64,000 nucleotides of DNA from positions 268,565-332,564 of the forward strand of contig CAZQGO010000001.1 of the NCBI GenBank assembly GCA_964593065.1. The letters are read 5' to 3'. The notes below the pieces were generated by a model. That model saw only the letters and a program-made list of their open reading frames with translations, had not been told where the DNA came from and did no database searches. A program made the position numbers and the translations under genes. Positions 34,046 to 53,721 of the stretch are shown here, piece by piece (position 1 is the stretch's first letter; the number at the start of each line of letters is the position of its first letter). This stretch comes from an uncultured bacterium (GTDB lineage: Bacteria; Oederibacteriota; JAAXVQ01).

Positions 34046-34073
34046 AAAGTTCCTTGACGGGGGAGACCCAGCC

Positions 34074-34808: not shown

Positions 34809-34872
34809 TCCGCCGCCGGATCCGGCGACGCGGAAGGTCCAAGTACGCGGGGAGAACAGGAGAACCGGGACC

Positions 34873-38922: not shown

Positions 38923-41900
38923 ATGCCGCGAACCTGTACGAAAAACATCCGCAGCCCAAGGAATATCAGGAATTCGCTACTGCGCGCCCGCCGGCGTCAC
39001 GCCGGTTTTGCGCTGTGGACGAAATGCCTTTCCCTGCTTCTCTCCCTCAGTTTCATTTTTCCCTATCTCACCTGGGCGTTTGAACCGGAAAATTTTCCGA
39101 ATCCGCCCGCGGCGGAATTTACCCCCCCGCATAAACCCATCACCATTCCTTCCGAGTACGGGATCATCACCCAGTCGTTCCGGGGCGGAGACCGCCGGGT
39201 GGTGGTGATCCAGGATTTGCATTGCAACTTTGAAGTTCAGATGAACATTGCCGGCATCCTGGATCATTTGGCGGACACCCAGGGGCTCCGGCTGGTCGGC
39301 ATCGAAGGGGCGAGCCAACCCCTCAATGTCAGCAAGCTCGGGAGCTTCCCCGTGCCCGAGGTCAAACGGCAGGTCGGCCGGTATCTGGTTCGGCGGGGAG
39401 AAATCGGGGGCCCGGAATACTATGCCGCCACCGGGCGGCATCCCATCCGGGTCAAAGGCATCGAGACCCGGAAACTTTACCAGCAGAGCCTGGCCGAAGT
39501 GCGGAGCTTTTTGAACCCGGAGAACCAGGGGATCTGCTACGACTTGCGCGAGGCGTATGAGGAACTTAAAGGCCGCTGGTACACGCCGGCCTTGGGATCC
39601 TTGGATCAACTGCAGTCCCGGTACCGCCAGGGCCAACTGGGGCTGCGCGCGTACGTCCTGGCGCTGCAGCGGGAGGCCCGAAAATTCGGCGCCGAACTTG
39701 CGGACGCGCCGGAGATGCAGGCCATCCTGCAGGGGGCGCAGGCGAACCTTCCGCCCTCCGGCGACCGGGAAAAGCTGGACAGCGAACTGGACGCATGGGT
39801 GGCCGCCCTGCGGGAAACGCTGTATACGCGGGAGGAGCAGCGGTCCCTGGACCTCTACCTGGGCCGTCTGGACGTGCTGGAAAAACTCATGCATATTTCC
39901 GCCAGTCCCGCGGAAGTATCCGCTTTCTGCGCGCACCGCCCGGACTATGCCGCGACGGCGTTTTTGCAGGGCCTGCGGCAATTGTCACCCGCCGGGACGG
40001 AGGCCCAGGACCTGGAACCGGAAATCCTCCAGCTGGATGCCTGCCTGGAACGTGTCGCGGATTTCTACCGCTTGGCCGACGAGCGCAGCGGGCAGTGCGC
40101 CGCCAATCTGCTGGACCGCATGCGCCGGGACGGGGCCGACTTGGCCGTCCTGGTCGCGGGCGGTTTTCACGCGGCAGGCATTCAAAAGACCTTGGAAAAT
40201 GCGGGGGTCTCATATCTGGGCGTGCAGCCGCGCGTGACCGACTTCGAAACCGATTCCCCCTACTTCCAGTTGCTGCAGAACCGAGTGACACCTTTGGAAA
40301 AGCTTCTGACCGCGCGGCAGAACCTGCTGGCCATCCCGGTAAGCAGCGTGGAGGTCAGGGAAGACGCCGGCACGCAAGACACAGCCGCCGCCATTCTGAA
40401 TGAAGACAACCTGGAACAGCTTGCCGGGACGCAGGACCGGCAGACCTTGCAGCGCTACCGTGCGCATCTGAATTTCATCCAGGTTCTGCTGAACGGCTGT
40501 CTCGTCGACTGGCTGGCCGGACAAGGGGCCGGCGCCCGCCTGTTCCTGAAATATTTTTCCCTGAAACAAGACTACCCTGCGGATTATTCCGGATTGGAAT
40601 TCAATGCGGCCAAAGCGACCTCGGAAACCTTGAAACAACTGGCCGCGGGCCAGCCCGCCGTCCTGCAGCTGGCGGACGCGGGCGTGCCGTTCACCCTGGT
40701 ATTGTCCCCGGCCGCGGATTCCGGGCGGGAAGCGGCGGCTCTCGCGAGCATGCCTTTGGAGGACGGCCGGAAGCTGTGGGTCATGAACCCGGCACAGGTC
40801 GAGGCCTACCGGCGGCAATGGCAGGCCGCGTCCGGCCCGGGCCGGCTGCTGCGTGAGGTAACGGTGCGCATGCCCCGCAGCCTGGCTGTGGTTTTCGCCG
40901 TGCACCTGCTGGGAAGACTGGCCCTCGCCGGGCTTGCCTTGCAGGCCCGTGGCCGGAGCATTTGGGCCGGGCTGAAAACCGCCGGCCCAGGGGCGGCCTG
41001 GGCAGGGCTGGCCAATACGGTGGTCAATTTCCTGACGGTTTCGGGCCTTGCTCTCCGGTTGGCCCGGCTCTGGCCGACGCCGGGACGGGCTCCGTCGCTT
41101 TCGGGCGGGGCGCGCAAGCCGCTGATGGAACCGCACCGGCCGCTCAGGTCCTCCGAATCCGCGGCCCTGCTGCGGCTGGCGCGGTCCCGCCCCTGGCCGG
41201 CCGTGGAAAACAAGCAGATCAATTTGCCCGGCGGGCAGCCGCTCACCCTGCCTTCCTACCGGCTGGTGGCCTATACCGCCACGGGCAGGGACGATCCCAT
41301 GGATTTGCTGCTGGCACGGAAAGGCAACGCCTATCATCTCCGGGATCCGCAAAGCGGGGAACAATTCATTTTCGTGAACCAGGCCGCCATGGACCGCGAG
41401 GAGGCCGTCGAACACGAGGAGTTCGACCTGTTCTGGACCGTGCGGCTGGAGGCGGAAGCCTCTTCGCCCGAAGGCCTGCGCCTGCCCGCCGGGTTCGACA
41501 TCCAGCGCGCCGCCCATACCCTGGCCTGGGGCCTGCAGATCGCCCTGCGCGGCTGGACCCGTGTGGGCCAGAGCGCTTTTCTACGCCATGAGCTGTTTTT
41601 CCTGGGCGAAAGCGACCTGCGGAGCCTGGCGCGCGAGAACCGCCGGCCCCATGCTCAACTCCGCGAGAGATATCTCACGCCCCTGCTGCCGCCCCAGACC
41701 CTGCAAACGATCGCGGATTTCGAAACCTCCATCCGGGACGCCTACGCGGCCAACGATCCGCGCGATTTGCGGAATTACCGGCAGGTGAGGAAAATTCTCG
41801 CCCAGGGCATCCGGGGGGAAATCCGCGCCATGCTGCGGGGAGAGCGCGAGGAGTATGCAGCCGACTATTTTCTCGAAGCCATGCCTTTCCTGGCCTTGGA

Positions 41901-44900
41901 CGACGGCGAGGAGGTCATCACCCTGCACCGGCTGGCCGACGAGCTCTACCCGGAAATCCTGGCCCAATTCAAGACGGATTTTGCCAAAGCCGCGAAAAAG
42001 CTGGCCAGGGCCGAGTACGGCCAGGCCGTGGTTGCCGATCTCCCGACCTCAGAACAGCTGTTTGCCTTATTGCAGGTGCGGAACGAATACCAGTTCGTGC
42101 TGATCCAGGGCGCAGCCGGCAGGTTCCTGCTCATCTGCAAGGGCACGGGCGAACTGCCCGACGCCCTCGTCGAACTGACCGGCGCCGGAGCCGTGGTCCC
42201 CGAGGTCTTCGGTCTGCTGCCGCTCGGACCCTATCTTGAGGCCGTGGGTCACTCCCACCCCAGAGCCGCCGGCCCCAGCCCGCGGGACCAGGACAATCAG
42301 CAGAGCCTCAGCGAGACGCTGCGGGACATGGACCTGGATCCTTCCCGGGTGGGAAGATTCGTGGTCCGGATCGATCCCAGGCTGGGGCATTGGTGGTTGT
42401 GGCGTTTTGACGCCGATACCGGGGCTTATGTCCGGCATGAGGGCCAGGCGGAAGTGCGGGAGCAGCTGGCGGACCTGGGGTTCATTCAGCGGCCCTTGGC
42501 ACCGGCCGGCGACGACCGCGAGGGCGTCATCGGCGCCATGCTGGAAGGGCATCGCGGGCTCTATGCGGAGATGGTCGAGCGGGTGGGGAAGATTGCGGCG
42601 CGGCGCGGATGGGGCGGAATATTCTCGGGCCTGGAACGGGCGCGCACGCCGCAAGACCGGCAGGCCATTGACCGGGCCCTGGCCCGGCTGCGCCAGGCCG
42701 GATTGCCGGAAGAACGAATTGAACGCATGCGGGCCAGGGTTTTCCCGGTAACTGTGGCCGAGAGCAAGCTCGGCCGGGAAGGCAGCCGTTTGGGCGGGCT
42801 GATCGTGCGCCATGCGGGGGAATATCACGTACTCTTCCCGCGGGAGCGGCTGCTCAACCCGGACCCGGAGGTCCTGGGCGACCTGCTGCACGAGCTGGTC
42901 GAGATCGAGCTGCTGGAAAACGGCTTCACCCTGGCGGAAGCGCATTGGCAGGCCCTGCGCCTGCGCCGGCTGTGGCTCGAGGGCGGGGAAGCCCCGGGGC
43001 CCGCGGTGGCCCAGGCCTGGGAGGAACTGCGGAATCCGTACCGCTGGGGTCAGTTCGAACTTGCGTTTCCCGGAATCCTGCGGGGCATCCTCGACGGGCG
43101 CAATGTATCCTCCCGCACAAACTTGGCGACCCTGCCCGAGGACCGGCTGGCAGGGATCCGCCGCGAATTCCTGGCCGCGCTGCATGCGGCCGGCTGGCAC
43201 GCCCCGCCCGAAGTGCAGGAACGTTACGAAAACATCGTGCATCATCTCCTGACCGCCGCCCAGCTCCGCCAGTTGACCCAGGCCCTGGGACCGGTCACCG
43301 AAAGAGACCTGGCCTGGGTGCTGCAGCGGCTCCATACCTTCGCGGTCCGGTTGGATGAATTCGGCGTGCAGCCGGAGGTGGCGGTCCAACTGCGGCTGCT
43401 GGACCTGTTGAACCAGCTGCCCTTCAGTGAAGCCCAGCGGGTTCAGCTGCTCGCCACGCACGGCCTGGCCGGGCCGCAGTGGGACGGAGCCGTCCCCGAT
43501 GCCGCGGTGACGCAAGCATTGCGCGCCGGGAAACTGGACGAGGCGTGGGAACGGGTCTTCGGGCAGTCACGCCCGATCGCCGAGGCCCTGCCTTTCCTCA
43601 AGGCGCTGGTCGAGTTCTTCCGGGTCTCTTTGTCCAGGATGGAAAATAACTACTTCATCAACCTCCTGCTTGATTTTCAGAATACCACCGGCAGGCCATT
43701 GGAACGGGGGACCGCGGACGAGCGGCGGCGGGCGGCGGGCGAACTGACCCGCAACACCGTGGACGGCCTGTGGATCGCGCTCGAAGTCGGGCATTACCTG
43801 GCCGACCGGGGCATCCGCATGGAGCGGTTCCTGGCGCGCGGGTTCGACGGCATCGTGTTCGAGGGCAGACTGCGCGGGCGGCCGGTCGTGATCAAAATCA
43901 ACCTGCCGCAAAACGGCCTGAAGCCGCGGGAGCTGCTGGAAAACATCAACCACGTCATGTCGGCCACGGACGGGCGGCCCGATTTTGTCCAGAACCAGGA
44001 GCTCCTCCTCATTCGCACGGTGCGGGACCAGGAGATCGTGATCGAAGTCAACGCCAGGGTGCCGGGTATTCCCCTGTGGCGGCTGCTCCACCATCCCGAA
44101 GCCTATGGCGTCGGCGCGGCCGCGGTGCTGGACCACCTCCGCCAATTCCTGGACATGCACGCCTTCCTGGCGCGGCACGGCCTGGTCAACCGCGACGCTC
44201 AGAATCTGAACAATATCGTGACCCGGCCCGACGGCCGGGACCAATTCGTCGATTTCGGAAATATCCGGCCGCGACAGCCGGGCGAAGAGACCTGGGAGCG
44301 CCGCCAGGTTCTTCTGGCCATGATCAAGATCCTCACCGGCCAGGCCATCCGGCTGGCGGAGAGCCAGGAGGGGGATCAGGGGACGGACATCGGCCGCGAG
44401 CAGTACATCGCCCTTTTCCTGAAAAGGTTCGGAGAACAGCATCGCGAACTGGCCGCGGAGATTTTCACCCTGTGGGCGGACGCCTGGGAAAATCCGGAAA
44501 AGCCCTGGGAAGAACTGAGCCAGAGCCTCGGGGAGCTCTCCGGCCGCCTGGGCGAATCCGAACGCCTGGCCAGCGGAATCGTCGGAGCCGCGCTGGTGGA
44601 GGGCGGAGGCCCGGCTGCGCCCCTCGGCCTTGCGGCTGCGGAGAGCACGCGCGGATTGAGAGCAACGGCGGAAACGCGGCCGACCGCTGCGCCGCTTCCC
44701 GGCGATGAATCCCTGGCCGGCGGGATCGGCATACCGGGCGCAAAGCTTCCCCGGAACATTCTTGCCCGCCAGGCTGCGGTTGCGGCTTTGGGCTACGGGG
44801 CTTTGGCCGCCGGACTGGCAGGCGTACTGGCGGCCTTGGGGGTGGGCGATCCGCAGGCCAATCTGGCGGTCGTGGCCTCCGTGGCGGGCTTCTTGAGCGG

Positions 44901-47900
44901 CCGGGCCGCGCTCGCCGGGCTCGCCGAATGGTTCATCAAGGGCCGGGTCCTGCGGAACGGCCCCGGCTTGATTTACGTGACGGACGGCCGCCTCGTCATC
45001 GACCGGCGTGTGCAGGTAACCTCCTTCCCGCGCCGGGTCCTCGCCTATACTGCCGGTTACATCTGCCTGGGTTTGCTCGCGGTCAGCAGTCTCGTGCATG
45101 AATTCTTCCACTATTTCCTGCCCTCGGAAACGGCCGTGTACGGCCTGGAAGCCCTGACCGTGATGACGGTCGCGGGCTTCTTCCTCAACGCGCTGTGGAT
45201 CACGGCCGCGGGCGCGCTGGCGGTGGGCGCGGTTCTCCTGGTGCGGGTGGGCAGGGAAATCAGAGCCGCCATGGCCGGCACTGCCTCTCTGGCCGCCGCG
45301 CCGGAGACAGCGGAAACCGATACCGAAACAAACGCCGCTACACCGGCTTCCTTCCTCCTTGAAGCCATGGGGCTTGGCCGGGTCGACCAGATTCCAGGTG
45401 CCACCCGCTTGCCGTTGTCCGCAGCCGACGAGTCGGTTTTCGCCACGGCGGGCTTGCAAGTGGCAAGGATCCGTCTCGATCAACAACCCTCGAGCGCTGT
45501 GCTTCCGGAAGGCGTCGAGATCCTGCGAAGAGAGTTGCTGATCCGCGGTCAGCAAACTAGTGTATTCGATCTGCTCTTGTCTTCCGATGGCGCGCGAATC
45601 CTGGCGGCATTTCCGGCCGGAGATGGGAAACAATCGGCTCCGCCAAGTGCAAAAACCGGGTGGGACTACGTGGACTTTACACCCTACTATCTGTCCCTCC
45701 CGAATCCGGCAGGCCGAGCGGCCGAAGAAGCCTGGAAAAATTTCGGGTTTGAATGGGAACGGACGCAAGCATTGGTTCAAGCTTACAAGAACGTTCGGTT
45801 CGGCCCTGCGGCCGCGCGCCTGGTCCATGCCATCAATCCCCGGGAGTCTTACGTATCCGTTGCGGTCTCGCGCTTGACCGGTAAAGTTACCGTGCGGCCT
45901 CTCTATATTAAAATGGGCTCTCTGCCCAGGCCCCGGCCCTGGACGCGGCAATTGCTGGTACCGGTTTTCCCGACGGTCTACACGTTCAACCGCTTTCTGG
46001 GCCCGGACCGTAATTTCTATGCCAAAGTATATGCTTATCTTAAAGCCGGTACGCCCGTAACGGTTTTAGGTTCGGGGTCGGGCGTGGATACGGGCCTTGC
46101 TTGCCTGAAAAGCGGGCGGCCGGTCGTCAGCTACGATGCAAATTCACTCGCCCGCGCAAACGTATCGGCCATGGCAGCTTTAAACGGCCTTGACGTCAAG
46201 GTCACGGACCAAAGACCCAGGAACCCGATAGGGCTGGTGGTCTGGAATATGCCGGCGTACACACCTCGCGGGCTGTTCGCCGACAAAACCCAGAAACAAT
46301 TAAAAGATATCTGGGACCGGGATATCGGCGGCGAAATCCTAAGGGACTTCGCGCGCTACTTGGCTGCGAATCGTGTTCCCGCGCTGATTTGGAATGAGTC
46401 CGTCCATCAGGCTGAAATTGCGGAGATCGTCCGGGCGGAAGGTTTGACCCTCCGCACCCTGGGCCGCAACGTCTTCCTGCTCGAGCCCGGCGCGCGGGAA
46501 CGGGCGCCGGACATGATTCCCGCAAATGCGGCCCCGAATGGCGCCGCACTGATCCGAGATTTCGCCCTGCCGACCGATGCGTTCCAGGGAATCCGGCCGG
46601 AACGCTTAGAGGCCCTGGCACCTCTGCTGCAGGCCCGGCTGGAAGAGAGCCGCGCACCGGCGGAGGAGTTCCCGTCAATCCTCGCCGAGACCTCCCTCTT
46701 TCTGGACCGGGCCGAATCCGCGCGGGCGCGGATGCTGGCTGGAGAAGCCCTCACCGCCGACGATCTCGCCGCCCGGCTAGCGATCGAACCGGCCGAGGCC
46801 GCACAAATCCTGGATTACCTTGGCGGCTGGGATGCCGAACTCACCTATTTGAAGGGCATCCATCCCTCGCAGGGCGGGAAAACTTACTTCCACCCCCTGG
46901 TGGCTCCGGAGGCCGTCTTCCTGACGCTGGTAATCGTGCTTGCGGCGGCGACGGGATTCACCGCCGGCTGGATGTTCGGCGCACTGTTCCTGGCCGGCGG
47001 TTTCTTGTCCGTGCTGCTCAGCTCGCCTTGGCTCCAGCGCCATCCGAAACTTCGAAAAATCGCGACAGGGCTCTCCGGCGGTATTCAAATCCTCGCCGGT
47101 GGTTTGCTCTACGTTACCTTCAATCCCGCGGGCTTATCCGCAACCGGTCTCGCGGTTTTGTTCATGCCCCTGTTGTTATCCCGGCCGATCCATGAACTGG
47201 GGCATTACGTGATCGGCAAATTCTCCGGATTGAAGACCCTGGAGTATTCGCTCTTCCGGGTGAAGATTGACCCCCGTGAATTGCAACGCTTGCACCTGCT
47301 TCCCAAAATCGCCTTCCTGAGCGCCGGCATCCTGGCGGCCGGTCTGGCCGGAATTTTACTCATCGCCTTGGGCTCGGTATTCCACCTGGCAATCATTTCG
47401 GTTTTCGGGATCCTGCTCACGGGCCTCGCACTGTTGGATTTCCTGCCCGCTTATCGTGGTGCGCTACCCTTGGATGGCTTGCGAATCTATGATGCCCTGG
47501 CTTCCGCCTTGGCCGAGTACGCGACGCAGCGGTTTCTCCTGCCCCTGCGCGAACGCCGGCAGAACCGGCGCCAGCCGCGCGGACCGTCGCCGGAAATCAG
47601 GACCCAGGCCGTTTTCCCGCTGCTCGAGTCCCTGCAGTTGACGGATCCGAAGCGCATTCCCGGTGCAAAATTCCTGGATGCCCCCCCTGTGCGGGGCCTT
47701 GATGTAAAACGCCTGGAACTGCCGCCCCTGGCCGATCCCAACCAGCCGCCCACGGGCGCGGATTACCTGCAGTGCCAGCTGGCCGACCCCACGAAGGGAG
47801 CAGTGAGGGTTTTCGATCTGCTCTATGATTCCCGCGGGCATTTGCAGGCGGTTTTTCCGGTTTTGCCGGAAACCCTGGGTCCGGGCCGGGCAGAACCGGT

Positions 47901-50900
47901 CACGGAAAAAATGATCCTGGACCACCGCCTGCGCTATCTGGATTTGTCGCCGTACTGGCTGCAAGTCCCGCCGCTGGGCGCCTCCGGGGCGCAAGCCCGC
48001 TGGCGGGCCGCGGCGCGTGCACAGAATCGGGCCCGGCGCGCCATTGAGGCCTACAAACAGGCGCGTTTTCCCGGGGATCTGGCCGAGCGTCTGGAAACAG
48101 TTCCCAGGGACTTTCCCGAGCTCGATCTCGGCTTTGGCGAAGAAACGAGGATAGTGGAGGAGGAGCTGCCGGACATCGATTTCCTGGTGGCCCGGGTGGA
48201 GCGGAATACCGGCGCGGTGCAGGTGAAGGGATATGCGCTCCGGCAGCTGGCGGCCGCCGACCTGAAACCGGAGCCGGGCTATGACTACGTGATAGCGCCT
48301 CTTTACCCTTCGGTATATTTTCCGCAGCTGGCGGCCGAACAGCCCTATTATCAGGGCATCAGCCAAGAGCTTGATTTGCAGCCCGGGCAGAGGGTGCTGG
48401 TGGCGGGTCCCGGTACCGGTCTGGATGTCTGGCTCGCCTGGAGGCAAACGAAGAACAAGGTGTATGTGGTGGGCCTGAATCCCATGGAAATCGCCAACAC
48501 CCGCGCCTTTGCCGCCGCCGCGGGTTTTGAGGTGGAGGCCGTGGTGGGGGACAATATCGTCACGGCCGATGGCCTTCCGCGTTTTGCAGAGCCTTTCGAC
48601 CGCGTACTGTACAATACGCCTTTCCTGGCTCTCGGGGAAGAGGAACAGCCGACCTATTATGAATTTTTGGAAGACCGTTGGGATGGAGATTACGGCGGCG
48701 GCATGCTCCGCCGATTCGCCCGGGGCCTGCTCGAGGTTCTGAAACCTGGCGGCCAGGCCTGGATCTGGCGGAGCGTCAAACATCACCTGCAGGAATCCAC
48801 GGCTTGCTTGAAAACCGCCGGACGAACCCTGGACCCGGCCGTCCTGCGCGAGGGGCCGGACCTGCTGGAGGTGGAGGAAAAGGCCCAGGGGGTCTGCCGG
48901 GTCACGCGTCCGGGAGCGGACGTAGTGGATCCCAGGCCGGTGCTCGCCGGGCTGCTGCACGCGGCCCATGTGCGTTACGACCTGGCGGTTCGAAAAGTGG
49001 TCAATGCCTCCCAGGAACCGAAGACGGGTCTTTACGGAGGCGCCGGAGCCGATCTTGCCAATTTCCTGTTGTCGACCAACGCCCGCATCGGTTATTTCGT
49101 GGCCCGGTATGCAGGCTTGGATGTCTCGGATCTGGAGCGGCTGGCGGATTACCGGGGAAAAGTGAATCCGGACTATGCCCGGGAAAAATTCCGGAAAGGT
49201 TTTGCCTCCACAGCCGATGTGACGGCCAAGGAAGACATTCTGGCGGCTTTGGCGTTCGAGCTGGAGGCCCTGGGCGTTGATTTGGACCAGGTCCGCGCGG
49301 ACGATGATGCCGGGCATCCCCGCATTCGTTTTGAATGGGCTTACCCGGGAGCCGGGCCTGAAACTTACGCCGTGACCTTCCTGGACGGAGACATCACATC
49401 GCTGGGCGCATTGGATGAATCGGGCCGGCTGCCCGCAGGGTGTCCGCAGAAACTGGTGGACGTACTCGACGGGAAATTTGATATCTACTACCAAAGGGCG
49501 GGAGGCCAAATGGCCTCCGGATACGCGCAACCGCACAATTATATTCATTCCCTCTATGCCGCGTTGAGTCCCGGAGGCCATATGATTACGGATGATTATG
49601 CGCTGACCGGGCCACGCCGAAATCGGGTTATGGATTTCGGGGCTCAATTCCCGCTGGCTCTCGCGGAAGTCGGGCTTCCGCGAGCCGGGGACTTGGCGGA
49701 GGACATCCTGCGGGTACGAATCTCCCTGGCCGGCGTGCCGGAAAGTCTGCGGTCGTTGTTTTACACCACCGAGAAATCCGCGCCGGAAAATTACTACGGC
49801 TGGCATGTGCGCATCCGGCAGAAACCCGGCGCGACGCCTGCCGCATCCGAGCCCGGGCCGGCCGGCCGACGTGGCGCCAGACCGGCCGCGGCCCCCGAGG
49901 GACCACGGCCGCTGCCTGGAACCCAGGGGCCGCCCGCGGAGGCAAGGGTCGCCCAGGCCGGCCTGCGGGCACTGTTCCACGGCGGGGCTTTCCTGGTTCT
50001 GCCCGGCTTGGCGGCGCTCCTCGATCATGCCGGCGGTCTGGCCGCCGCCTGGGTCCGCCTTCTGACCGGCCGGCGGCCCGTGTCCGGCCGTCTCAGCCTG
50101 ACGCCGCCACCGCAAACCAGGCATCCCGGACCGGGAGTCGCTCGGGCCATCGCGCTCGTAACCCTGTGGGCTCTATCTCCGGGTGCGGTGTACGCCCAGG
50201 GACCGGGAGGAGATGCTTCCGTCCCTGAAAGATTCCTTGCGGTTCTGGCCGCGTCGCTAGCCTTCCTATCGATCCTTGCTTTGCCCTTTGTTTTCATGGC
50301 ATTGAAAGAGCGCAAGGTCAAGGCCGACTTGCTGGCCATAGAGCAAGGCGCGGCCCGGGGTGATTTCCTGCCTGCGGTCAAGGCGCTCGGCCAAAAGAAC
50401 GAAACCATCAGGGGGCGCGCCAGGGAAGTGGTGGCCGGGGCCGGGGTTCGGGCGTTGCCTGCCATGCATGAAATGTTGGCCACGAGGGAAAGGAGAATAA
50501 TCCAAACGGATGCTTTCTGGGATAGTTTCGGACGGGTCGCGGATCAGAGCTCCATTCCCCTGCTCGAGAATGCTTACGACGAGATGACTATATCGGCCCG
50601 GCGGCGATTCATCGATGACTACGAGATTAGTCAAATATGCAGGCTTCTGCACCGTCCGTGGCCGGTACACGAGTTTGAGCTGGCGGGCCGCCCGTATACG
50701 GAAGCGGACTATCACCAGGATGAGCGCCGGTTGTCGCAGTTGGAAAAACGCTTACAGGCGACTCCAGAGCAGATCGGTACTACGGTGGGGGATAAACCCC
50801 ATGTGGATCAAGGCGGATTCCGGACGTACAAAACGGTCTGGGAATCGAATCCGGAATATCCTGCGGTCCTGCGGTCAATCCGTGATTTGCAAAATCGGAT

Positions 50901-53616
50901 GCACGCGTTTCGCATCGAGCTTCCAAAACTGGCAGAAATCCATGCGATGGGCGCAAGACGCACAGTATTGCCGCGCATCGGTCTGAAGGCCCTCTATCTC
51001 GCGGAAATGGCGAGAACGGGATTGCCGGTCCCGGACGGATTCGTGATCCCCCCGGATGTGGATGTGAATGAGCCGCGTGACGGCCAGGCGATCCTGCAAG
51101 CGGCGGCTGCCTTCTTCGCGCGGCATGAGACCTTGATTGTGCGCAGCAGTCCCGAGATCTCCATGCCGGGAATGCTGGAAACCATCGGAAATATCACCAC
51201 CGAGCAGGAGCTCGTGCAAGCCATCCGACAGGTGCGGTTATCCTGGAGCAAACCCGAGGTTGTAGAGTACCGGAAACAGCAAGGACTGCCGATGTACATG
51301 GACCTGCCGGTGATTGTACAGAAGATGGCCGCGGGCGACAAAAATCAACTCTCGGGCAGTGGGGTGTTCTTCACACGCGATCCCGTGAACGGCTCGGCCA
51401 CTCCGGTTTTACGATTCGCGGTGCAGGCCAAGGGCGAAGCGGTGGTCGGCCGGGCCCCGCAAGCGCCTTTATCACAGTTCCCGGAAAGGTTCGCCTGGGC
51501 ATTCGACCGACTTCGGTCCGCGGGCGGACAATTGGAGCGCACGTTCCGCGAAGCCGTGGAGATGGAGTTCGTCATCGAAAACGGCGAACTGTGGATCGTG
51601 CAAGCCAGGCCGGCTGCCATGTCCGCCAACGCCCGGCTTCAGTCCGCTTTGGAAATGAGCGTGGAAGGGCTGGTTGAACCAGCCACACTGGCTGCGGCCG
51701 TGGGCAACGCGATGTATCAGCCCCTGTACCGCGTCGCTCCGAACGCCGAACTGCTGGAACTCGGACGGGGCCTCGGATCCGCACCCGGCGCGGTTCGGGG
51801 CACGGTCGTGACCAGTCTGGCGCAAGCCGAGCAGGCGAGGCGGGAAGGCAAGAAGTGTATCCTCGCGGCGTGGAATCATCCCGAACAAATCCCAAGAGCG
51901 CTTTTGGACGGCATGGTCGTGGGTGTGGTGACAGCAAACGGTCACGAGGCGCTGCACGACAGCGTCCTGGCGCGCTCTCTCGGTATTCCCGTCGTGGATC
52001 AAGTGCGCGGGGGGGAACAGCGGCTGAAACCCGGGACCGAGGTCATCCTGGACGGCACTACGGGCAGGATCTTTGCGGCTCCGGCCGGACCCAATCCGTT
52101 CCTTCTGGACAGTTTCGTGGAGGTAGCTGGCACCCGATTCAGCATCCGGCAGGAACAAAACCTGAACAGGGAACGATATGCAGGACGGAAGGATTATCGT
52201 CCGCTGATCCGGGAACATGCGGCCCTGACGGAGAAATATCTGGTCCGCAGCGAAGGATTTGGAACTCTGGAGATCCTGAAGTTGAGCATTCAAGCCCATG
52301 CGGCGCACGAGCGGATACGCGACTTGGGTAGCCAAGGCCGTAAATACCGGTCACCAGAACGCATCGCAAAAGATATCTCGGCGGCTTATTCCCCTGCGGT
52401 TAAGGCGGCACTGGAAAAGAGGCGCGCCGGATTGCCACCCTTGGGATCCGATGGAAGTCCCGAGTCTGCTGGCGGCGTCCTGCCTTTTGTCAAAGCCCGG
52501 TGGGTGAACCGGGGCAACCCGGACGAAGCCGTGCGGGCCCAGCGCGCGGCGGCCTACGACACCCGCACGGCCTGGTGGCTGGAGAACGGACTTTTGTATG
52601 GCGTGGCGGCTGTGCCGGTGCTGATCGGCATTCTGGGCTTCGGGCTGCCAGCCCTGGCCACGGCCGGGGCGGGCTACGTGCTGGTCTGGGCCCTGTTCGC
52701 GCCTTTGCACTACCTGCGCACCCGGGCCGGCCGTGCGCCGCCGGCCAACCTCCGTGCGGCGTGGGTGATTGCGGGTATCAATTTGGCCTTTGCCCCCGCC
52801 CTGCTTCTAGCGCCCGGATTCCTGCCGGCCATCGTGGGGGCATCCTTGGTCACGCACTGGGGGGTAAACCACTGGCTCGGATCGTCGCGGGCCGATTTTG
52901 GACTTGATTCGGCGCTGCTTCAAACCGGAGTACGCGCGGTGCTCGGCAGAGGTGCCTCCCTGGCCCTGCCCGGCTCAGCGGCGCTGCTTGACAATGCCGG
53001 CGGTGTGGCGTCCGCAATGATCCGGCTGGTGGCCGGAGCTCGGCCCGTGTCCGGCCGTCTCACACTGACGCTTCCAGCGCAAACCTCGCATCCCGGACCG
53101 GGAGTTGCGCTGGCCGTTGCGGTCGGGAGAGCGACCGGAGCCACGCGCCTAGGCGTTCTGAGCCGGCAATGGGCCCTCGGCCGCCAGCCGGAAGCCTACC
53201 TCGCGGCCTGGGGCCGGGCCGCGCAGTACCGCTCCGCGCTGGGCCGCGAGCTGCAAAACGAGAACAGCCAGGTGAGACGCCTGATCCGGCGCGGCGCGGG
53301 GAACGACCTCCGCCAAATGCAGCGGCAACTGCTGACCACGCTGGCGGATATGCTCAGGCAGGAGCCGCCCAGCGAGGAATTGCTGGCCGAAACCCTGGAC
53401 TTCATGCAGGCCTTGGCTCCCATGGCGACGATGACAGCCGGAAGCCTGGGCAACAAAGCCATTCGCCTGCCCCGCTTGCTGTTCGCGCCCGAAATGAGAA
53501 GGGAATTGCGGTTCTGGCTGGACTATTTCCGGAATTTCCCGGACCTCCGGTTGCGGGAGAGACGCGAACTGTCCCCAAGACGCCGAGCCCCGCGCACGGT
53601 CGGCCGCTCGGCCTAA
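38923..53616 (+). CDS. Giant (4,897 aa) multi-pass membrane, multi-enzyme mosaic protein of unknown function
   Basis: A single stop-free frame of 14,694 nt with protein-like composition throughout. Multiple independent catalytic-type motifs are listed as sub-features below. An in-frame stop 33 nt upstream (38890) fixes ATG 38923 as the first ATG. Confidence 0.85.
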   Translation: MPRTCTKNIRSPRNIRNSLLRARRRHAGFALWTKCLSLLLSLSFIFPYLTWAFEPENFPNPPAAEFTPPHKPITIPSEYGIITQSFRGGDRRVVVIQDLHCNFEVQMNIAGILDHLADTQGLRLVGIEGASQPLNVSKLGSFPVPEVKRQVGRYLVRRGEIGGPEYYAATGRHPIRVKGIETRKLYQQSLAEVRSFLNPENQGICYDLREAYEELKGRWYTPALGSLDQLQSRYRQGQLGLRAYVLALQREARKFGAELADAPEMQAILQGAQANLPPSGDREKLDSELDAWVAALRETLYTREEQRSLDLYLGRLDVLEKLMHISASPAEVSAFCAHRPDYAATAFLQGLRQLSPAGTEAQDLEPEILQLDACLERVADFYRLADERSGQCAANLLDRMRRDGADLAVLVAGGFHAAGIQKTLENAGVSYLGVQPRVTDFETDSPYFQLLQNRVTPLEKLLTARQNLLAIPVSSVEVREDAGTQDTAAAILNEDNLEQLAGTQDRQTLQRYRAHLNFIQVLLNGCLVDWLAGQGAGARLFLKYFSLKQDYPADYSGLEFNAAKATSETLKQLAAGQPAVLQLADAGVPFTLVLSPAADSGREAAALASMPLEDGRKLWVMNPAQVEAYRRQWQAASGPGRLLREVTVRMPRSLAVVFAVHLLGRLALAGLALQARGRSIWAGLKTAGPGAAWAGLANTVVNFLTVSGLALRLARLWPTPGRAPSLSGGARKPLMEPHRPLRSSESAALLRLARSRPWPAVENKQINLPGGQPLTLPSYRLVAYTATGRDDPMDLLLARKGNAYHLRDPQSGEQFIFVNQAAMDREEAVEHEEFDLFWTVRLEAEASSPEGLRLPAGFDIQRAAHTLAWGLQIALRGWTRVGQSAFLRHELFFLGESDLRSLARENRRPHAQLRERYLTPLLPPQTLQTIADFETSIRDAYAANDPRDLRNYRQVRKILAQGIRGEIRAMLRGEREEYAADYFLEAMPFLALDDGEEVITLHRLADELYPEILAQFKTDFAKAAKKLARAEYGQAVVADLPTSEQLFALLQVRNEYQFVLIQGAAGRFLLICKGTGELPDALVELTGAGAVVPEVFGLLPLGPYLEAVGHSHPRAAGPSPRDQDNQQSLSETLRDMDLDPSRVGRFVVRIDPRLGHWWLWRFDADTGAYVRHEGQAEVREQLADLGFIQRPLAPAGDDREGVIGAMLEGHRGLYAEMVERVGKIAARRGWGGIFSGLERARTPQDRQAIDRALARLRQAGLPEERIERMRARVFPVTVAESKLGREGSRLGGLIVRHAGEYHVLFPRERLLNPDPEVLGDLLHELVEIELLENGFTLAEAHWQALRLRRLWLEGGEAPGPAVAQAWEELRNPYRWGQFELAFPGILRGILDGRNVSSRTNLATLPEDRLAGIRREFLAALHAAGWHAPPEVQERYENIVHHLLTAAQLRQLTQALGPVTERDLAWVLQRLHTFAVRLDEFGVQPEVAVQLRLLDLLNQLPFSEAQRVQLLATHGLAGPQWDGAVPDAAVTQALRAGKLDEAWERVFGQSRPIAEALPFLKALVEFFRVSLSRMENNYFINLLLDFQNTTGRPLERGTADERRRAAGELTRNTVDGLWIALEVGHYLADRGIRMERFLARGFDGIVFEGRLRGRPVVIKINLPQNGLKPRELLENINHVMSATDGRPDFVQNQELLLIRTVRDQEIVIEVNARVPGIPLWRLLHHPEAYGVGAAAVLDHLRQFLDMHAFLARHGLVNRDAQNLNNIVTRPDGRDQFVDFGNIRPRQPGEETWERRQVLLAMIKILTGQAIRLAESQEGDQGTDIGREQYIALFLKRFGEQHRELAAEIFTLWADAWENPEKPWEELSQSLGELSGRLGESERLASGIVGAALVEGGGPAAPLGLAAAESTRGLRATAETRPTAAPLPGDESLAGGIGIPGAKLPRNILARQAAVAALGYGALAAGLAGVLAALGVGDPQANLAVVASVAGFLSGRAALAGLAEWFIKGRVLRNGPGLIYVTDGRLVIDRRVQVTSFPRRVLAYTAGYICLGLLAVSSLVHEFFHYFLPSETAVYGLEALTVMTVAGFFLNALWITAAGALAVGAVLLVRVGREIRAAMAGTASLAAAPETAETDTETNAATPASFLLEAMGLGRVDQIPGATRLPLSAADESVFATAGLQVARIRLDQQPSSAVLPEGVEILRRELLIRGQQTSVFDLLLSSDGARILAAFPAGDGKQSAPPSAKTGWDYVDFTPYYLSLPNPAGRAAEEAWKNFGFEWERTQALVQAYKNVRFGPAAARLVHAINPRESYVSVAVSRLTGKVTVRPLYIKMGSLPRPRPWTRQLLVPVFPTVYTFNRFLGPDRNFYAKVYAYLKAGTPVTVLGSGSGVDTGLACLKSGRPVVSYDANSLARANVSAMAALNGLDVKVTDQRPRNPIGLVVWNMPAYTPRGLFADKTQKQLKDIWDRDIGGEILRDFARYLAANRVPALIWNESVHQAEIAEIVRAEGLTLRTLGRNVFLLEPGARERAPDMIPANAAPNGAALIRDFALPTDAFQGIRPERLEALAPLLQARLEESRAPAEEFPSILAETSLFLDRAESARARMLAGEALTADDLAARLAIEPAEAAQILDYLGGWDAELTYLKGIHPSQGGKTYFHPLVAPEAVFLTLVIVLAAATGFTAGWMFGALFLAGGFLSVLLSSPWLQRHPKLRKIATGLSGGIQILAGGLLYVTFNPAGLSATGLAVLFMPLLLSRPIHELGHYVIGKFSGLKTLEYSLFRVKIDPRELQRLHLLPKIAFLSAGILAAGLAGILLIALGSVFHLAIISVFGILLTGLALLDFLPAYRGALPLDGLRIYDALASALAEYATQRFLLPLRERRQNRRQPRGPSPEIRTQAVFPLLESLQLTDPKRIPGAKFLDAPPVRGLDVKRLELPPLADPNQPPTGADYLQCQLADPTKGAVRVFDLLYDSRGHLQAVFPVLPETLGPGRAEPVTEKMILDHRLRYLDLSPYWLQVPPLGASGAQARWRAAARAQNRARRAIEAYKQARFPGDLAERLETVPRDFPELDLGFGEETRIVEEELPDIDFLVARVERNTGAVQVKGYALRQLAAADLKPEPGYDYVIAPLYPSVYFPQLAAEQPYYQGISQELDLQPGQRVLVAGPGTGLDVWLAWRQTKNKVYVVGLNPMEIANTRAFAAAAGFEVEAVVGDNIVTADGLPRFAEPFDRVLYNTPFLALGEEEQPTYYEFLEDRWDGDYGGGMLRRFARGLLEVLKPGGQAWIWRSVKHHLQESTACLKTAGRTLDPAVLREGPDLLEVEEKAQGVCRVTRPGADVVDPRPVLAGLLHAAHVRYDLAVRKVVNASQEPKTGLYGGAGADLANFLLSTNARIGYFVARYAGLDVSDLERLADYRGKVNPDYAREKFRKGFASTADVTAKEDILAALAFELEALGVDLDQVRADDDAGHPRIRFEWAYPGAGPETYAVTFLDGDITSLGALDESGRLPAGCPQKLVDVLDGKFDIYYQRAGGQMASGYAQPHNYIHSLYAALSPGGHMITDDYALTGPRRNRVMDFGAQFPLALAEVGLPRAGDLAEDILRVRISLAGVPESLRSLFYTTEKSAPENYYGWHVRIRQKPGATPAASEPGPAGRRGARPAAAPEGPRPLPGTQGPPAEARVAQAGLRALFHGGAFLVLPGLAALLDHAGGLAAAWVRLLTGRRPVSGRLSLTPPPQTRHPGPGVARAIALVTLWALSPGAVYAQGPGGDASVPERFLAVLAASLAFLSILALPFVFMALKERKVKADLLAIEQGAARGDFLPAVKALGQKNETIRGRAREVVAGAGVRALPAMHEMLATRERRIIQTDAFWDSFGRVADQSSIPLLENAYDEMTISARRRFIDDYEISQICRLLHRPWPVHEFELAGRPYTEADYHQDERRLSQLEKRLQATPEQIGTTVGDKPHVDQGGFRTYKTVWESNPEYPAVLRSIRDLQNRMHAFRIELPKLAEIHAMGARRTVLPRIGLKALYLAEMARTGLPVPDGFVIPPDVDVNEPRDGQAILQAAAAFFARHETLIVRSSPEISMPGMLETIGNITTEQELVQAIRQVRLSWSKPEVVEYRKQQGLPMYMDLPVIVQKMAAGDKNQLSGSGVFFTRDPVNGSATPVLRFAVQAKGEAVVGRAPQAPLSQFPERFAWAFDRLRSAGGQLERTFREAVEMEFVIENGELWIVQARPAAMSANARLQSALEMSVEGLVEPATLAAAVGNAMYQPLYRVAPNAELLELGRGLGSAPGAVRGTVVTSLAQAEQARREGKKCILAAWNHPEQIPRALLDGMVVGVVTANGHEALHDSVLARSLGIPVVDQVRGGEQRLKPGTEVILDGTTGRIFAAPAGPNPFLLDSFVEVAGTRFSIRQEQNLNRERYAGRKDYRPLIREHAALTEKYLVRSEGFGTLEILKLSIQAHAAHERIRDLGSQGRKYRSPERIAKDISAAYSPAVKAALEKRRAGLPPLGSDGSPESAGGVLPFVKARWVNRGNPDEAVRAQRAAAYDTRTAWWLENGLLYGVAAVPVLIGILGFGLPALATAGAGYVLVWALFAPLHYLRTRAGRAPPANLRAAWVIAGINLAFAPALLLAPGFLPAIVGASLVTHWGVNHWLGSSRADFGLDSALLQTGVRAVLGRGASLALPGSAALLDNAGGVASAMIRLVAGARPVSGRLTLTLPAQTSHPGPGVALAVAVGRATGATRLGVLSRQWALGRQPEAYLAAWGRAAQYRSALGRELQNENSQVRRLIRRGAGNDLRQMQRQLLTTLADMLRQEPPSEELLAETLDFMQALAPMATMTAGSLGNKAIRLPRLLFAPEMRRELRFWLDYFRNFPDLRLRERRELSPRRRAPRTVGRSA
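39007..39081 (+). other. Giant ORF: N-terminal signal-anchor / TM helix
   Basis: FALWTKCLSLLLSLSFIFPYLTWAF preceded by an Arg-rich segment (LLRARRRH). Confidence 0.6.
39175..40243 (+). other. Giant ORF: TraB/ChaN/Tiki-superfamily-like domain
   Basis: RRVVVIQDLHCNFEVQMNIAGILDHL...LVGIEGAS near the start and DLAVLVAGGFHAAGI near the end. These resemble the paired (GE/D)xH....H and GxxH motifs of the ChaN/TraB/erythromycin-esterase (Tiki) fold. Confidence 0.4.
40880..41075 (+). other. Giant ORF: hydrophobic segment (probably 2 TM helices)
   Basis: LAVVFAVHLLGRLALAGLAL ... WAGLANTVVNFLTVSGLALRLARLW. Confidence 0.4.
42080..42420 (+). other. Giant ORF: JAB/MPN-like metalloprotease motif region
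   Basis: AVGHSHPRAAGPSPRD (His1110, His1112) resembles the JAMM signature HxHx7Sx2D as seen in RadC/prokaryotic JAB (HNHPSGxxxPSxxD), but is one residue shorter between H and S. Confidence 0.3.
43812..44400 (+). other. Giant ORF: protein-kinase-like domain
   Basis: Gly-rich loop LARGFDGIVFEG and VVIK (Lys1658). Catalytic loop HGLVNRDAQNLNN (Asp1758, with Asn at +5). DFG (Asp1777). The order and spacing fit the eukaryotic-like/atypical kinase fold, with HRD changed to NRD. Confidence 0.6.
44755..45255 (+). other. Giant ORF: TM block 1 with membrane-embedded HEFFH motif (degenerate M50-like)
   Basis: Several hydrophobic helices. HEFFH (His2059-His2063) sits inside one of them. I found no downstream xxPLDG motif. 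Confidence 0.45.
45950..46490 (+). other. Giant ORF: HemK/PrmC-like class I SAM methyltransferase domain 1
   Basis: Motif I VTVLGSGSGVDTG and motif IV VVWNMPAY (Asn2442), an NPPY variant. DIGGEILRDF matches the family's dGG.dGl segment. Confidence 0.7.
46885..47510 (+). other. Giant ORF: TM block 2, site-2-protease (peptidase M50)-like domain
   Basis: HELGH (His2757-His2761) lies in a TM helix. A downstream LLDFLPAYRGALPLDG (Asp2851) matches the S2P pair HExxH plus (N/D)xxPxxxLDG. Confidence 0.65.
48291..48775 (+). other. Giant ORF: HemK/PrmC-like class I SAM methyltransferase domain 2
   Basis: Motif I VLVAGPGTGLD and motif IV VLYNTPFL (Asn3231), then DGDYGGGMLRRF and LKPGGQAWIW. It is parallel to domain 1, including the preceding PxVY(F)P segment. 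Confidence 0.7.
48990..49620 (+). other. Giant ORF: third Rossmann/methyltransferase-like segment (weak)
   Basis: LYGGAGADLANF (Gly-rich), FLDGDI, FDIYYQRAGG and LSPGGHMITDDY loosely follow the class I MTase motif order. Confidence 0.3.
49960..50150 (+). repeat. Giant ORF: intragenic direct repeat, copy R1
   Basis: Encodes GLRALFHGGAFLVLPGLAALLDHAGGLAAAWVRLLTGRRPVSGRLSLTPPPQTRHPGPGVARAIA. It shares identical nucleotide blocks with R2: a 22-nt block (50074-50095 = 53041-53062) and an 18-nt block (50121-50138 = 53088-53105). Confidence 0.9.
50320..50600 (+). other. Giant ORF: HEAT/PBS-lyase-like helical repeats (weak)
   Basis: AVKALGQKNETIRGRAREVVAGAGVRALPAMHEML...SSIPLLENAYDE resembles short HEAT-like repeats. 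Confidence 0.3.
50965..51615 (+). other. Giant ORF: pyruvate-phosphate-dikinase-type ATP-grasp (PPDK_N-like) nucleotide-binding domain
   Basis: LYLAEMARTGLPVPDGFVI, IVRSSPEISMPGMLETIGN, RLSWSKPEVVEYRK, SGSGVFFTRDPVNG, KGEAVVGR and VEMEFVIENGELWIVQARPA parallel the conserved blocks of PPDK/PEP synthase N-terminal domains. The helical insert subdomain seems to be missing. Confidence 0.8.
51760..52090 (+). other. Giant ORF: PEP-utilising-enzyme mobile (phosphohistidine swivel) domain
   Basis: GSAPGAVRGTVV...KKCILAAWNHPEQIPRALLDGMVVGVVTANGHEALHDSVLARSLGIPVV...VILDGTTGRIF. His4345 aligns with the catalytic His of GGxTSHAAxxAR. Confidence 0.7.
52560..52880 (+). other. Giant ORF: C-terminal TM cluster
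   Basis: AWWLENGLLYGVAAVPVLIGILGFGLPALATAGAGYVLVWALFAPL ... AAWVIAGINLAFAPALLLAPGFLPAIVGASLV. Confidence 0.5.
52927..53117 (+). repeat. Giant ORF: intragenic direct repeat, copy R2
   Basis: Encodes GVRAVLGRGASLALPGSAALLDNAGGVASAMIRLVAGARPVSGRLTLTLPAQTSHPGPGVALAVA. 43 of 65 residues are identical to R1 by hand alignment. The offset is exactly 2,967 nt (989 codons). Confidence 0.9.
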
Positions 53617-53721
53617 TCCGAGGCGCCAAGAGAGAGAAAATTGTATATAATATGTAAACGGCGGAATCAGGCGGCACCAGCGCCTCCGGTTCCGACTTCC
53701 AGTATTGGCGAGGGTCATTCC

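Follow-up and report, generated by a model that had tools for sequence, protein, structure and literature searches.

A giant modular protein with a predicted Tiki/Ere-like head from an uncultured Oederibacteriota bacterium, and the undescribed protein family to which it belongs

We describe a protein of 4,897 amino acids (aa), hereafter the giant protein, that is encoded by a single gene in a 64,000-nucleotide stretch of DNA from an uncultured bacterium of the Oederibacteriota (assembly GCA_964593065.1, contig CAZQGO010000001.1, positions 268,565 to 332,564, forward strand; this whole stretch is referred to below as the window, and all nucleotide positions are those of the window). Sequence comparisons place the giant protein in a family of giant modular proteins that has not been described before, is restricted to certain lineages and is rich in paralogues; its members share an N-terminal head, predicted to be a divergent hydrolase domain of the Tiki/Ere superfamily, and carry different cassettes behind it. 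Whereas the folds taken singly are already known, the architecture and the family are new. According to the reading that we favor, and to which as a whole we give slightly less than an even chance of being right, the head would lie in the periplasm, the cassettes would be tethered at the cytoplasmic face of the membrane, and the chain would be processed by proteases that are built into it.

38923..53616, + strand: the whole giant gene, from ATG to stop (4,897 codons plus the stop codon)

The first-pass annotation, which was made from the letters of the DNA alone, had described this gene as a single non-repetitive open reading frame (ORF) for a membrane-threaded mosaic of unrelated enzyme domains, with at least four clusters of hydrophobic helices and no features of nonribosomal peptide synthetases, polyketide synthases (NRPS/PKS) or adhesins, and in all these respects the description holds. 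Given the base composition of the window (0.028 stops per codon), a run of 4,897 codons without a stop would arise by chance with a probability of approximately 1e-60, and the coding signature in which GC content is highest at third codon positions and lowest at second positions (GC3 > GC1 > GC2) is found in the same frame in all 200-codon blocks of the giant ORF and is similar in the neighboring genes. Tandem Repeats Finder detected no repeats in the gene, and internal similarity within the protein, as assessed by internal BLAST, consists of two features, one diverged duplication and one 73-aa repeat. These coding statistics confirm the giant ORF as a genuine single gene. Hydropathy analysis located six hydrophobic regions (aa 35-53, 655-673, 1953-2109, 2659-2837, 3738-3790 and 4557-4630), and the motifs QDLH/GGFH, HSHP..SPRD, VVIK/NRD/DFG, HEFFH and HELGH..LPLDG are all present in their stated places. 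Neither NRPS/PKS domains (condensation, adenylation, carrier, KS) nor RTX, Ig or cadherin domains were detected in the giant protein with Pfam and NCBIfam, and it was assigned neither to the NRPS/PKS megasynthases nor to the repetitive adhesins. Five of the domains named by the annotation passed a test, namely the Tiki/ChaN-like domain, the kinase, the HemK-like methyltransferases, the site-2 protease (S2P)-like domain (weakly) and the PPDK-type ATP-grasp with its swivel domain, whereas the JAB-like motif, the HEFFH cassette and the HEAT-like region are still candidate calls.

Two further properties of the gene can be mentioned here. The GC3 value drops from ~0.80 (aa 1-2000) to 0.61-0.75 (aa 2200-4600), which hints at separate histories of the two halves of the gene, for example through acquisition of cassettes. 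The gene also contains antisense ORFs of up to 886 aa (for example, 47464-50124, - strand), but these are shadow ORFs, as is common in coding DNA of high GC content, and not genes.

The N-terminal part of the giant protein defines the family:

39019..39081, + strand: N-terminal signal anchor (aa 33-53; helix 35-53), predicted from hydropathy and from lysine and arginine (K/R) counts
39100..40362, + strand: family-defining head (aa 60-480), predicted hydrolase fold of the Ere/ChaN/Tiki/TraB superfamily with a large helical insert, from alignment A1, an AlphaFold (AF2) model and Foldseek
40885..40941, + strand: second membrane helix (aa 655-673), predicted end of a periplasmic loop, from hydropathy

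In alignment A1, which includes 22 sequences, residues D98, H100, Q106, E128, R388, G414-G415 (G354/G355 in A1 numbering) and H416 of the head are invariant, and the predicted catalytic set consists of D98-x-H100, E128 and the distal G-G-x-H416, with Asp rather than Glu as the first acidic residue. The AF2 model of the head that was obtained from A1 has a pLDDT of 84.6 and a pTM of 0.82, and the top five matches in a Foldseek search against the Protein Data Bank (PDB) are EreC (6xcs) and Bcr135 (3b55/2rad), with probabilities from 0.99 to 0.60, followed at lower scores by ChaN and HopBA1. The weak scores of these matches (E-value 4.5e-3, TM-score ~0.25) are due to a helical insert of ~190 aa that interrupts the fold. 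The distance of 28 residues between H100 and E128 is the same as that between H85 and E113 of Bcr135, the His-Glu pair of the catalytic 2His/2Glu set in the TIKI superfamily, to which Ere, Bcr135, ChaN and HopBA1 have been assigned (PMC6254334). Further proteins with the Tiki fold, besides HopBA1, are PMT and the MARTX effector RRSP (PMC6254334). There is no match to the head among curated sequence models (TraB, ChaN and Erythro_esterase of Pfam; NCBIfam) and no sequence or profile match in the PDB. Thus, the TraB/ChaN/Tiki-like domain that had been read from the translation is recovered through its fold and its invariant catalytic residues, and the head is supported, at the level of the predicted fold and active site, as a new, divergent branch of the Tiki/Ere hydrolase superfamily.

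The anchor is preceded by a strongly basic N-terminus (10 K/R before helix 35-53 and 0 in the 15 residues after it) and ends in a family motif, FPYLTWAF[E/D], that is conserved in 70 family sequences and is located 40-46 aa ahead of the QDLH motif. A fuller consensus, ..ISLL..TF.FPYLTWAF[E/D]P, can be drawn for window positions 39019-39090, with the spacing to the catalytic QDLH fixed in the same range. Such sequence conservation is unusual for a plain signal anchor and may reflect a dedicated sorting or cleavage signal.

When aa 1-1900 were used as the query, 64 proteins of 1,100-3,300 aa were retrieved, and the only part common to them is the head (aa ~30-475). In about half of these relatives no Pfam domain was detected. 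The Pfam cargo of the set includes HAD, PPDK_N with or without the full PPDK set, aldose epimerase, GH130, SIS, class-II FBP aldolase, FBPase, UDPGP, radical SAM, NUDIX, LOG, several types of methyltransferases, Pkinase, ABC1, M48, low molecular weight (LMW) phosphatase, Response_reg, SecA-like plus HTH_8, and Lon-like AAA+ domains. The generalization, made from the giant protein alone, that almost every recognizable piece modifies or cleaves proteins is not supported by this comparison, in which the paralogues carry sugar-phosphate enzymes along with HAD, NUDIX, radical SAM, SecA-like and Lon-like domains.

A genome scan for the head, with the narrower alignment A2 and one genome per species, matched 143 relatives, and 78 loci were kept. 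The 143 relatives come from about a dozen metagenome-assembled genomes (MAGs) that are assigned to FCPU426, Candidatus Firestonebacteria and Candidatus Goldiibacteriota or are labeled 'uncultured bacterium'. Among the 78 kept loci, at least 17 belong to a single FCPU426 MAG, DAOWGI01, with ORFs of roughly 1,800 to >3,800 aa, and several other MAGs contribute 8-10 each; overall, the copy number of the family goes up to ~18 in one genome. The loci were taken with a 10-kb flank; complete ORFs are 1,100-3,700 aa long, and ~22 ORFs of >3,780 aa run off the flank. Copies are often found in tandem: two tandem copies are present in 7 of the 78 loci, giant ORFs are arrayed head to tail in groups of two, three or more at L011/L021 (JAUVAV010000026.1), L020/L026 (CBDUZI010000001.1), L043, L050, L054 and L073, and at L001, L002 and L027 the preceding ORF ends in the C-terminal tail domain of the family. 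The head of the giant protein is 48% identical to that of its best relative in FCPU426, Goldiibacteriota or Firestonebacteria, two neighbors of the giant gene in the window are 48-59% identical to genes in such MAGs, and high-GC members of this group exist; the bacterium from which the window comes is therefore probably related to the group.

Relatives are connected to the giant protein through other parts as well. The relative P0001 (2,954 aa) shares with it the head (40% identity), the PPDK module (44%) and also the tail; P0001 is intact in two independent assemblies, and among the genes of its housekeeping neighborhood is one for a normal PPDK of 910 aa. With aa 690-1889 as the query, an exhaustive HMMER search yielded 66 further relatives, and the head is present in 14 of the 67 listed proteins (the query counted), which are up to 7,272 aa long. 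The modules of the giant protein that are described below as M1, M2-kinase, cassette C, the tail, the PPDK module and the linker-methyltransferase module recur at differing positions in other members, and no close orthologue with the same whole architecture was found in these searches. The BLAST-type comparison called for by the annotation thus shows that parts of the protein (head, PPDK, tail, M1, M2-kinase) are conserved in fused form, and it recovered no relative with the architecture as a whole. We found no curated model of the family in Pfam or NCBIfam and no paper that describes it in the literature on giant proteins in these phyla or on a Tiki-headed family. What the annotation, which knew of no characterized protein with this combination, could not see is that the giant protein is itself one of many cassette-shuffled members of a large family.

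Behind the second membrane helix, the giant protein contains four modules that precede its first polytopic membrane cassette:

41125..41802, + strand: module M1 (aa ~735-960), with HExxE..W and AAHxLAW motifs, from recurrence in other giants
42040..42312, + strand: JAB/JAMM-like motif region, H1110-x-H1112-x6-S1119-x2-D1122, from the motif
42490..43272, + strand: module M2 (aa ~1190-1450), with the motif LLHExvEiE...eAH, from a 15-sequence alignment and co-linear matches
43765..44427, + strand: Hanks-type protein-kinase-like domain (aa 1615-1835), with K1658, D1758, N1764 and D1777 (of DFG), from profile A3

Single-sequence Pfam searches with 13 segments of the giant protein detected nothing for the head, M1, the JAB-like region, M2, the kinase region, membrane cassettes A and C, the helical region and the tail. 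For the kinase region, where Pkinase was accordingly not detected and other single-sequence searches were marginal, the A3 profile of 16 sequences matches 1,242 protein kinases in the PDB, the best of them at 1.8e-9 (bacterial PknB/PknA types). In A3, K1658 and D1777 are invariant, N1764 is conserved in at least 90% of the sequences and D1758 is the majority residue of its column. This profile evidence confirms the module as a divergent Hanks-type kinase, as the VVIK/NRD..N/DFG pattern had suggested. Module M2 is located directly N-terminal of the kinase module in all relatives that hold both, the two forming a super-module of ~690 aa, and a metagenome scan found no close relative of the M2-kinase region. 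Module M1 is represented by 24 instances in other giant proteins, including three in P0072, and its AF2 model has pLDDT values that are mostly ~90 or higher over aa ~745-945 (blocks 69-97). With no Foldseek or PDB-profile match to M1 and no Pfam match in its stand-alone relatives, M1 may represent a new fold, to judge from the model, with a conserved HExxE...AAH motif. The motif pattern of M2 (aa 1290-1345) resembles that of M1, and the two modules may be homologous. As for the JAB-like region, the HSHP..SPRD motif that was noticed originally is real and is kept in P0122, the sole detectable homologue of the region (29% identity); its HSHPx6S..D spacing is one residue short of what we take to be the canonical E...HxHx7Sx2D. 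The MPN fold or family membership that the name implies is a possibility at the level of the motif, with no PDB or Pfam match and with AF2 pLDDT mostly <55 (block means 28-64).

The central part of the protein alternates membrane cassettes with methyltransferase-like modules:

44773..45249, + strand: membrane cassette A (~4 helices), HEFFH at aa 2059-2063, from hydropathy and motif only
45301..46554, + strand: linker domain and methyltransferase A, motif I VLGSGSGVD, motif IV NMPA, from internal BLAST and pairwise alignment
46897..47502, + strand: membrane cassette B (~6 helices), S2P-like, H2757-E-L-G-H2761 and L-D2851-G, from a PDB match
47575..48912, + strand: linker domain and methyltransferase B, HemK2/Mtq2-like, motif I VAGPGTGLD, motif IV NTPF, from NCBIfam, PDB and PADLOC
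48985..49824, + strand: third Rossmann-type segment, weakly similar to TylF/NovP-like methyltransferases (Pfam TylF, E 0.002; NovP, E 0.17)

The two linker-methyltransferase modules (aa 2127-2544 and 2885-3327) are products of an old, diverged duplication, with 30-32% identity and E-values down to 4e-10. Copy B matches NCBIfam TIGR00537 (HemK2/MTQ2) at 1.1e-9, with 38 bits against a cutoff of 87, which indicates similarity to HemK2 rather than membership in the equivalog, and also matches N6AMT1/HemK2 in the PDB (E 0.003) and the mad2 methyltransferase of PADLOC (3.5e-10). Both copies contain motif I (GxGxG), an N-x-P variant of motif IV (NMPA/NTPF) and a WDxDxGG..LRxFAR block, so the sequence evidence supports both as HemK2-like class-I methyltransferases, copy A by virtue of being the duplicate of copy B, and bears out the two HemK-like domains proposed at the outset. 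The linker-methyltransferase A module is also present in P0013. The third Rossmann-like segment listed by the annotation is recovered with the weak TylF/NovP-type matches given above and nothing stronger; it is 31% identical over 280 aa to a segment of another giant relative, P0121.

For cassette A, neither a homologue nor a Pfam match was found. For cassette B (aa 2640-2890), the best match in the whole PDB is the S2P of Methanocaldococcus jannaschii (3b4r, E 0.026), with HELGH (2757-2761) and PLDG (2849-2852) both aligned in a 122-residue alignment. PDZ and CBS domains were not detected by Pfam in the giant protein. The proposed HELGH..LPLDG protease of the S2P/M50 type is thus retained with regard to its motifs, which are co-linear with those of 3b4r, and is less secure with regard to the family, for which Pfam M50 gives an E-value of only 1.8; cassette B can be considered a weakly supported S2P/M50-like module.

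The C-terminal third comprises the following elements:

49939..50157, + strand: repeat R, copy 1, 73 aa (aa 3673-3745), from internal BLAST
50134..50292, + strand: hydrophobic hairpin (aa 3738-3790), from hydropathy
51019..52122, + strand: PPDK-type ATP-grasp and phospho-His swivel domain, candidate catalytic His H4345, from Pfam and NCBIfam
52465..52887, + strand: membrane cassette C (aa 4515-4655), with invariant GG, Y4545, E4554, H4596, H4645 and N4649, from alignment A5
52906..53124, + strand: repeat R, copy 2 (aa 4662-4734), from internal BLAST
53167..53544, + strand: conserved C-terminal tail domain (aa 4749-4874), from recurrence in relatives

The PPDK-type ATP-grasp with a phospho-His swivel domain, as first read from the translation, is confirmed: PPDK_N is detected at 1e-27 and PEP-utilizers at 4e-9, and the expected His (4345) is present. 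The NCBIfam models of PPDK, phosphoenolpyruvate (PEP) synthase and RPH match partially, over their N-terminal and central positions, with scores far below the equivalog cutoffs, and the PEP/pyruvate TIM-barrel domain (PEP-utilizers_C) is absent from the Pfam output. Because the TIM barrel is missing and the cutoffs are missed widely, this module is predicted to be an ATP-dependent phospho-His transfer module and not a PPDK or PEP synthase. Cassette C is represented by 19 instances in relatives, often two per protein; the arrangement E4554, FxxxH4596 and H4645xxxN4649 resembles what we take to be the motifs of CPBP/Rce1 proteases. The two copies of repeat R are 60% identical at the amino acid level and 72% at the nucleotide level; copy 1 ends in the hairpin, and copy 2 follows cassette C. 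No further instance of repeat R turned up among the sequences sampled, which points to a fairly recent duplication within the gene. The tail domain is present in 7 relatives, each time at or near the C-terminus of the ORF.

The favored reading of this architecture starts from the topology. Given the 10 K/R before the anchor helix and none in the 15 residues after it, the head is predicted to be outside the membrane, and helix 655-673 would return the chain to the cytoplasm; in most members of the close subfamily, the next hydrophobic segment is found ~100-260 aa past the head, and in a few it comes far later or is absent. The K/R flank counts fit the positive-inside rule for the anchor, for the 4 helices of cassette A and for the 6 helices of cassette B, so that the kinase and the methyltransferases are predicted to be cytoplasmic. 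Even numbers of helices in the membrane cassettes would keep the ATP- and S-adenosylmethionine-dependent cassettes at the cytoplasmic face, tethered to the membrane, and the chain would then be a membrane-tethered enzyme array or a polyprotein. In the latter case, its own protease-type cassettes (the head, the S2P-like cassette B, cassette C with its E/H/H/N set and possibly the JAMM-like and HExxE modules) might cut the chain in cis or under regulation, and the cuts might release or activate the cytoplasmic cassettes, which is the weakest step of the scheme. We consider processing by these cassettes a possibility that may well prove wrong. Comparably doubtful is its extension to the whole family, according to which FCPU426, Firestonebacteria, Goldiibacteriota and their relatives would keep a dozen or more Tiki-headed mosaic genes per genome, each put together by cassette shuffling and encoding a self-cut membrane polyprotein, a bacterial strategy of polyprotein maturation and regulated intramembrane proteolysis for which no precedent has been described.

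Several observations weigh against this reading. The S2P match of cassette B is weak by both measures quoted above, and this cassette was not found in the other sampled paralogues, so that self-processing by an S2P is not a family-wide rule. The protease-like label of M1 is unsupported because M1 has no structural match, the JAB (MPN) fold was not recovered in the low-confidence model, and the assignment of cassette C to CPBP/Rce1 had to be rejected, with no PDB-profile match and no Pfam match in 14 members. K/R counts do not settle the helix parity in the C-terminal third. The identical 4,897-aa protein is a singleton in the public collection, from one NCBI contig of 416,687 bp. The principal observation that is left unexplained comes from distant members (P0038, P0040, P0045, P0051, P0056 and P0063) that have cleavable-looking signal peptides or a lipobox, no later membrane segment, and Response_reg, methyltransferase or LMW-phosphatase domains; these proteins may be wholly exported, in conflict with a cytoplasmic role of the cargo.

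The genomic surroundings bear on some of the alternatives:

24603-27098, - strand: probable surface protein of 831 aa, in which NosD/beta-helix, Invasin_D3 and FlgD-Ig-like domains are detected
32149-38748, + strand: exporter cluster directly upstream of the giant gene, comprising an OEP (TolC-like) protein, an ABC ATPase and two ABC-2 permeases
53641-54513, + strand: canonical Sir2-family deacylase (PF02146, 1.9e-39), starting 24 bp past the stop of the giant gene
54479-55231, + strand: S4/RluA-type pseudouridine synthase gene, overlapping the Sir2 gene

A 174-bp AT-richer gap separates the exporter cluster, which has permeases of the ABC-2 type and is therefore probably not a type I secretion system (T1SS), from the giant gene, and an OEP/AcrB pump is encoded farther downstream of the Sir2 and RluA genes. 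Other neighbors in the window include 2-oxoacid:ferredoxin oxidoreductase, Na/Pi-PhoU, a PhoR-like histidine kinase and a GGDEF-EAL protein; this is an ordinary chromosomal context of a Gram-negative anaerobe. Neither tRNA genes nor a second copy of the head domain were found in the 64-kb window. The Sir2 neighbor is not conserved at other family loci, and across the 78 loci no gene family, including immunity, chaperone or secretion genes, recurs beside the giants. The adjacent Sir2 has no PADLOC match and hence is not of the defense type. An anti-phage defense system was considered and rejected, in view of the canonical sirtuin type of this neighbor and of the PADLOC match of the giant protein itself, which is only at the level of a methyltransferase (mad2).

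Among the alternatives to a tethered, self-processed array, we regard as unlikely, if worth keeping in mind, a transmembrane receptor or signaling platform, in which the periplasmic head would sense or process an extracellular ligand, the cytoplasmic cassettes would serve as outputs and the paralogues would have expanded as sensor kinases do. The helix-ectodomain-helix layout that is kept in most of the close subfamily, the Hanks kinase of the giant protein, and the signaling-type cargo of relatives (Pkinase, HATPase_c, Response_reg, HTH_8, LMW phosphatase and one protein named as a sigma-70 factor) are compatible with such a role. However, the invariant catalytic residues of the head point to an enzyme rather than a binding domain, no HAMP, PAS or GAF transducer modules were detected in the giant protein, and much of the family cargo is non-signaling (FBP aldolase, SIS, aldose epimerase, UDPGP, radical SAM, SecA-like, Lon-like). 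An exported, MARTX-like multi-effector toxin, whose signal would export the chain, whose hydrophobic cassettes would insert in the target membrane and whose internal proteases would free the cassettes, could account for the distant relatives with classical signal peptides or a lipobox and cytoplasm-type domains, and it is typical of polymorphic effectors to have variable cassettes between conserved termini, numerous paralogues and a tandem arrangement; the Tiki fold is present in RRSP, PMT and HopBA1. This explanation seems to us improbable, given that none of the immunity, chaperone or secretion genes expected for it is conserved at the loci, that RTX repeats and the CPD domain are absent and the upstream exporter appears not to be a T1SS, that the K/R pattern at cassettes A and B suits a resident inner-membrane protein, and that much of the family cargo looks housekeeping-like; furthermore, a polytopic S2P-like enzyme would be implausible as secreted cargo.

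The annotation itself had offered a post-translational-modification megaenzyme or a polyprotein. Taken as a dedicated enzyme that stays uncut and serves a single substrate or pathway (such as a peptide that undergoes phosphorylation, methylation and trimming before its export), the former draws on the fact that one chain combines kinase and phosphotransfer modules with HemK2-like methyltransferases and protease-type motifs, on the flanking Sir2 deacylase and ABC-2/OEP exporter genes, and on the occurrence of Tiki/TraB peptidases and methyltransferases with some systems for ribosomally synthesized and post-translationally modified peptides (RiPPs). A single dedicated pathway is less likely in view of the many paralogues of the giant protein and of the shuffling of their cassettes: the cargo differs wholesale between paralogues, the neighbors are not conserved across the family, and no precursor peptide or RiPP-type enzyme was detected. 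Nucleic acids, small molecules or glucans, moreover, are also among the substrates of HemK2-type methyltransferases and of dikinases of the PPDK and rifampicin phosphotransferase type. We therefore consider the megaenzyme quite improbable, whereas the polyprotein half of the proposal survives as the mechanism that we favor. That the gene is an artefact, whether a chimeric assembly, a fusion of ordinary genes through hidden frameshifts or a non-expressed relic, is very hard to believe. Its status as a singleton from one contig, the lack of a close orthologue with the same architecture among the sequences searched and the somewhat lower GC3 in the second half might be taken in this sense, but the length of the open frame and the uniform codon-position bias in one frame speak against it, as do the dozens of relatives of equal or greater length in several assemblies, the presence of the family head and the family tail at the N- and C-terminal ends, respectively, of one and the same ORF, and several cassettes with intact catalytic residues.

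Should the favored reading be correct, there is in poorly known phyla a large unannotated protein family, most of whose sequence is invisible to Pfam and NCBIfam, and a new form of enzyme organization in bacteria, with cassettes arrayed on the membrane behind an exported hydrolase head and perhaps processed in the manner of a polyprotein. Objects for study would include the new Tiki/Ere branch, the divergent Hanks-kinase super-module, an S2P-like cassette located within its own potential substrate, the membrane cassette with invariant E/H/H/N, and M1, which is well predicted and has no structural relative. Should the mechanism prove wrong, an explanation would still be needed for the family, the expansion of its paralogues and the shuffling of its cassettes, all of which are newly observed.

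Comparison with known systems reveals partial likeness to several of them. The head resembles the TIKI/TraB-PrgY/ChaN/Ere superfamily in its core fold, in D-x-H100 that takes the place of E-x-H, in E128 located 28 residues on and in G-G-x-H416, and TraB/PrgY and Tiki likewise present a catalytic domain outside the membrane next to transmembrane helices; it differs in having no curated sequence match, a helical insert and >4,000 residues of other modules behind it. Cassette B is similar to site-2 proteases (M50) in that HExxH and LDG are found in adjacent membrane helices and are co-linear with those of the M. jannaschii enzyme, but it is embedded in a giant multi-enzyme chain instead of forming a separate protease and is not accompanied by detectable PDZ or CBS domains. 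The PPDK-type module shares PPDK_N and PEP-utilizers domains and a conserved His with PPDK, PEP synthase, rifampicin phosphotransferase and glucan-water dikinase, and differs from PPDK and PEP synthase in the missing TIM barrel and in NCBIfam scores that all fall far short of the equivalog level.

At the level of the whole protein, MARTX and polymorphic toxins are comparable in their giant size, conserved termini, interchangeable enzyme cassettes and internal protease-type modules, as well as in the Tiki fold of RRSP. Unlike them, the giant protein has no RTX or glycine-rich repeats and no CPD, lacks T1SS and immunity genes and conserved neighbors, and contains ~20 predicted helices that follow the positive-inside rule. 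It was accordingly not assigned to the MARTX/RTX proteins, with no repeats or such Pfam domains in the chain and with ABC-2 permeases, an ABC ATPase and an OEP protein as its neighbors. The giant proteins of Omnitrophota and other candidate phyla are likewise encoded by very long ORFs of uncultivated bacteria and have membrane anchors. To judge from the title of a preprint (bioRxiv 10.1101/2023.11.21.568195), giants of the Omnitrophota type have been linked to the breakdown of cell walls by predatory bacteria, whereas the protein described here is an enzyme mosaic; a term search of that preprint yielded no mention of Firestonebacteria, FCPU426, Goldbacteria, erythromycin esterase or TraB. The nearest analogies to the giant protein would thus appear to be modular toxins, for the conserved ends and swapped cassettes, regulated intramembrane proteolysis, and ecto-hydrolases of the TraB/PrgY type.

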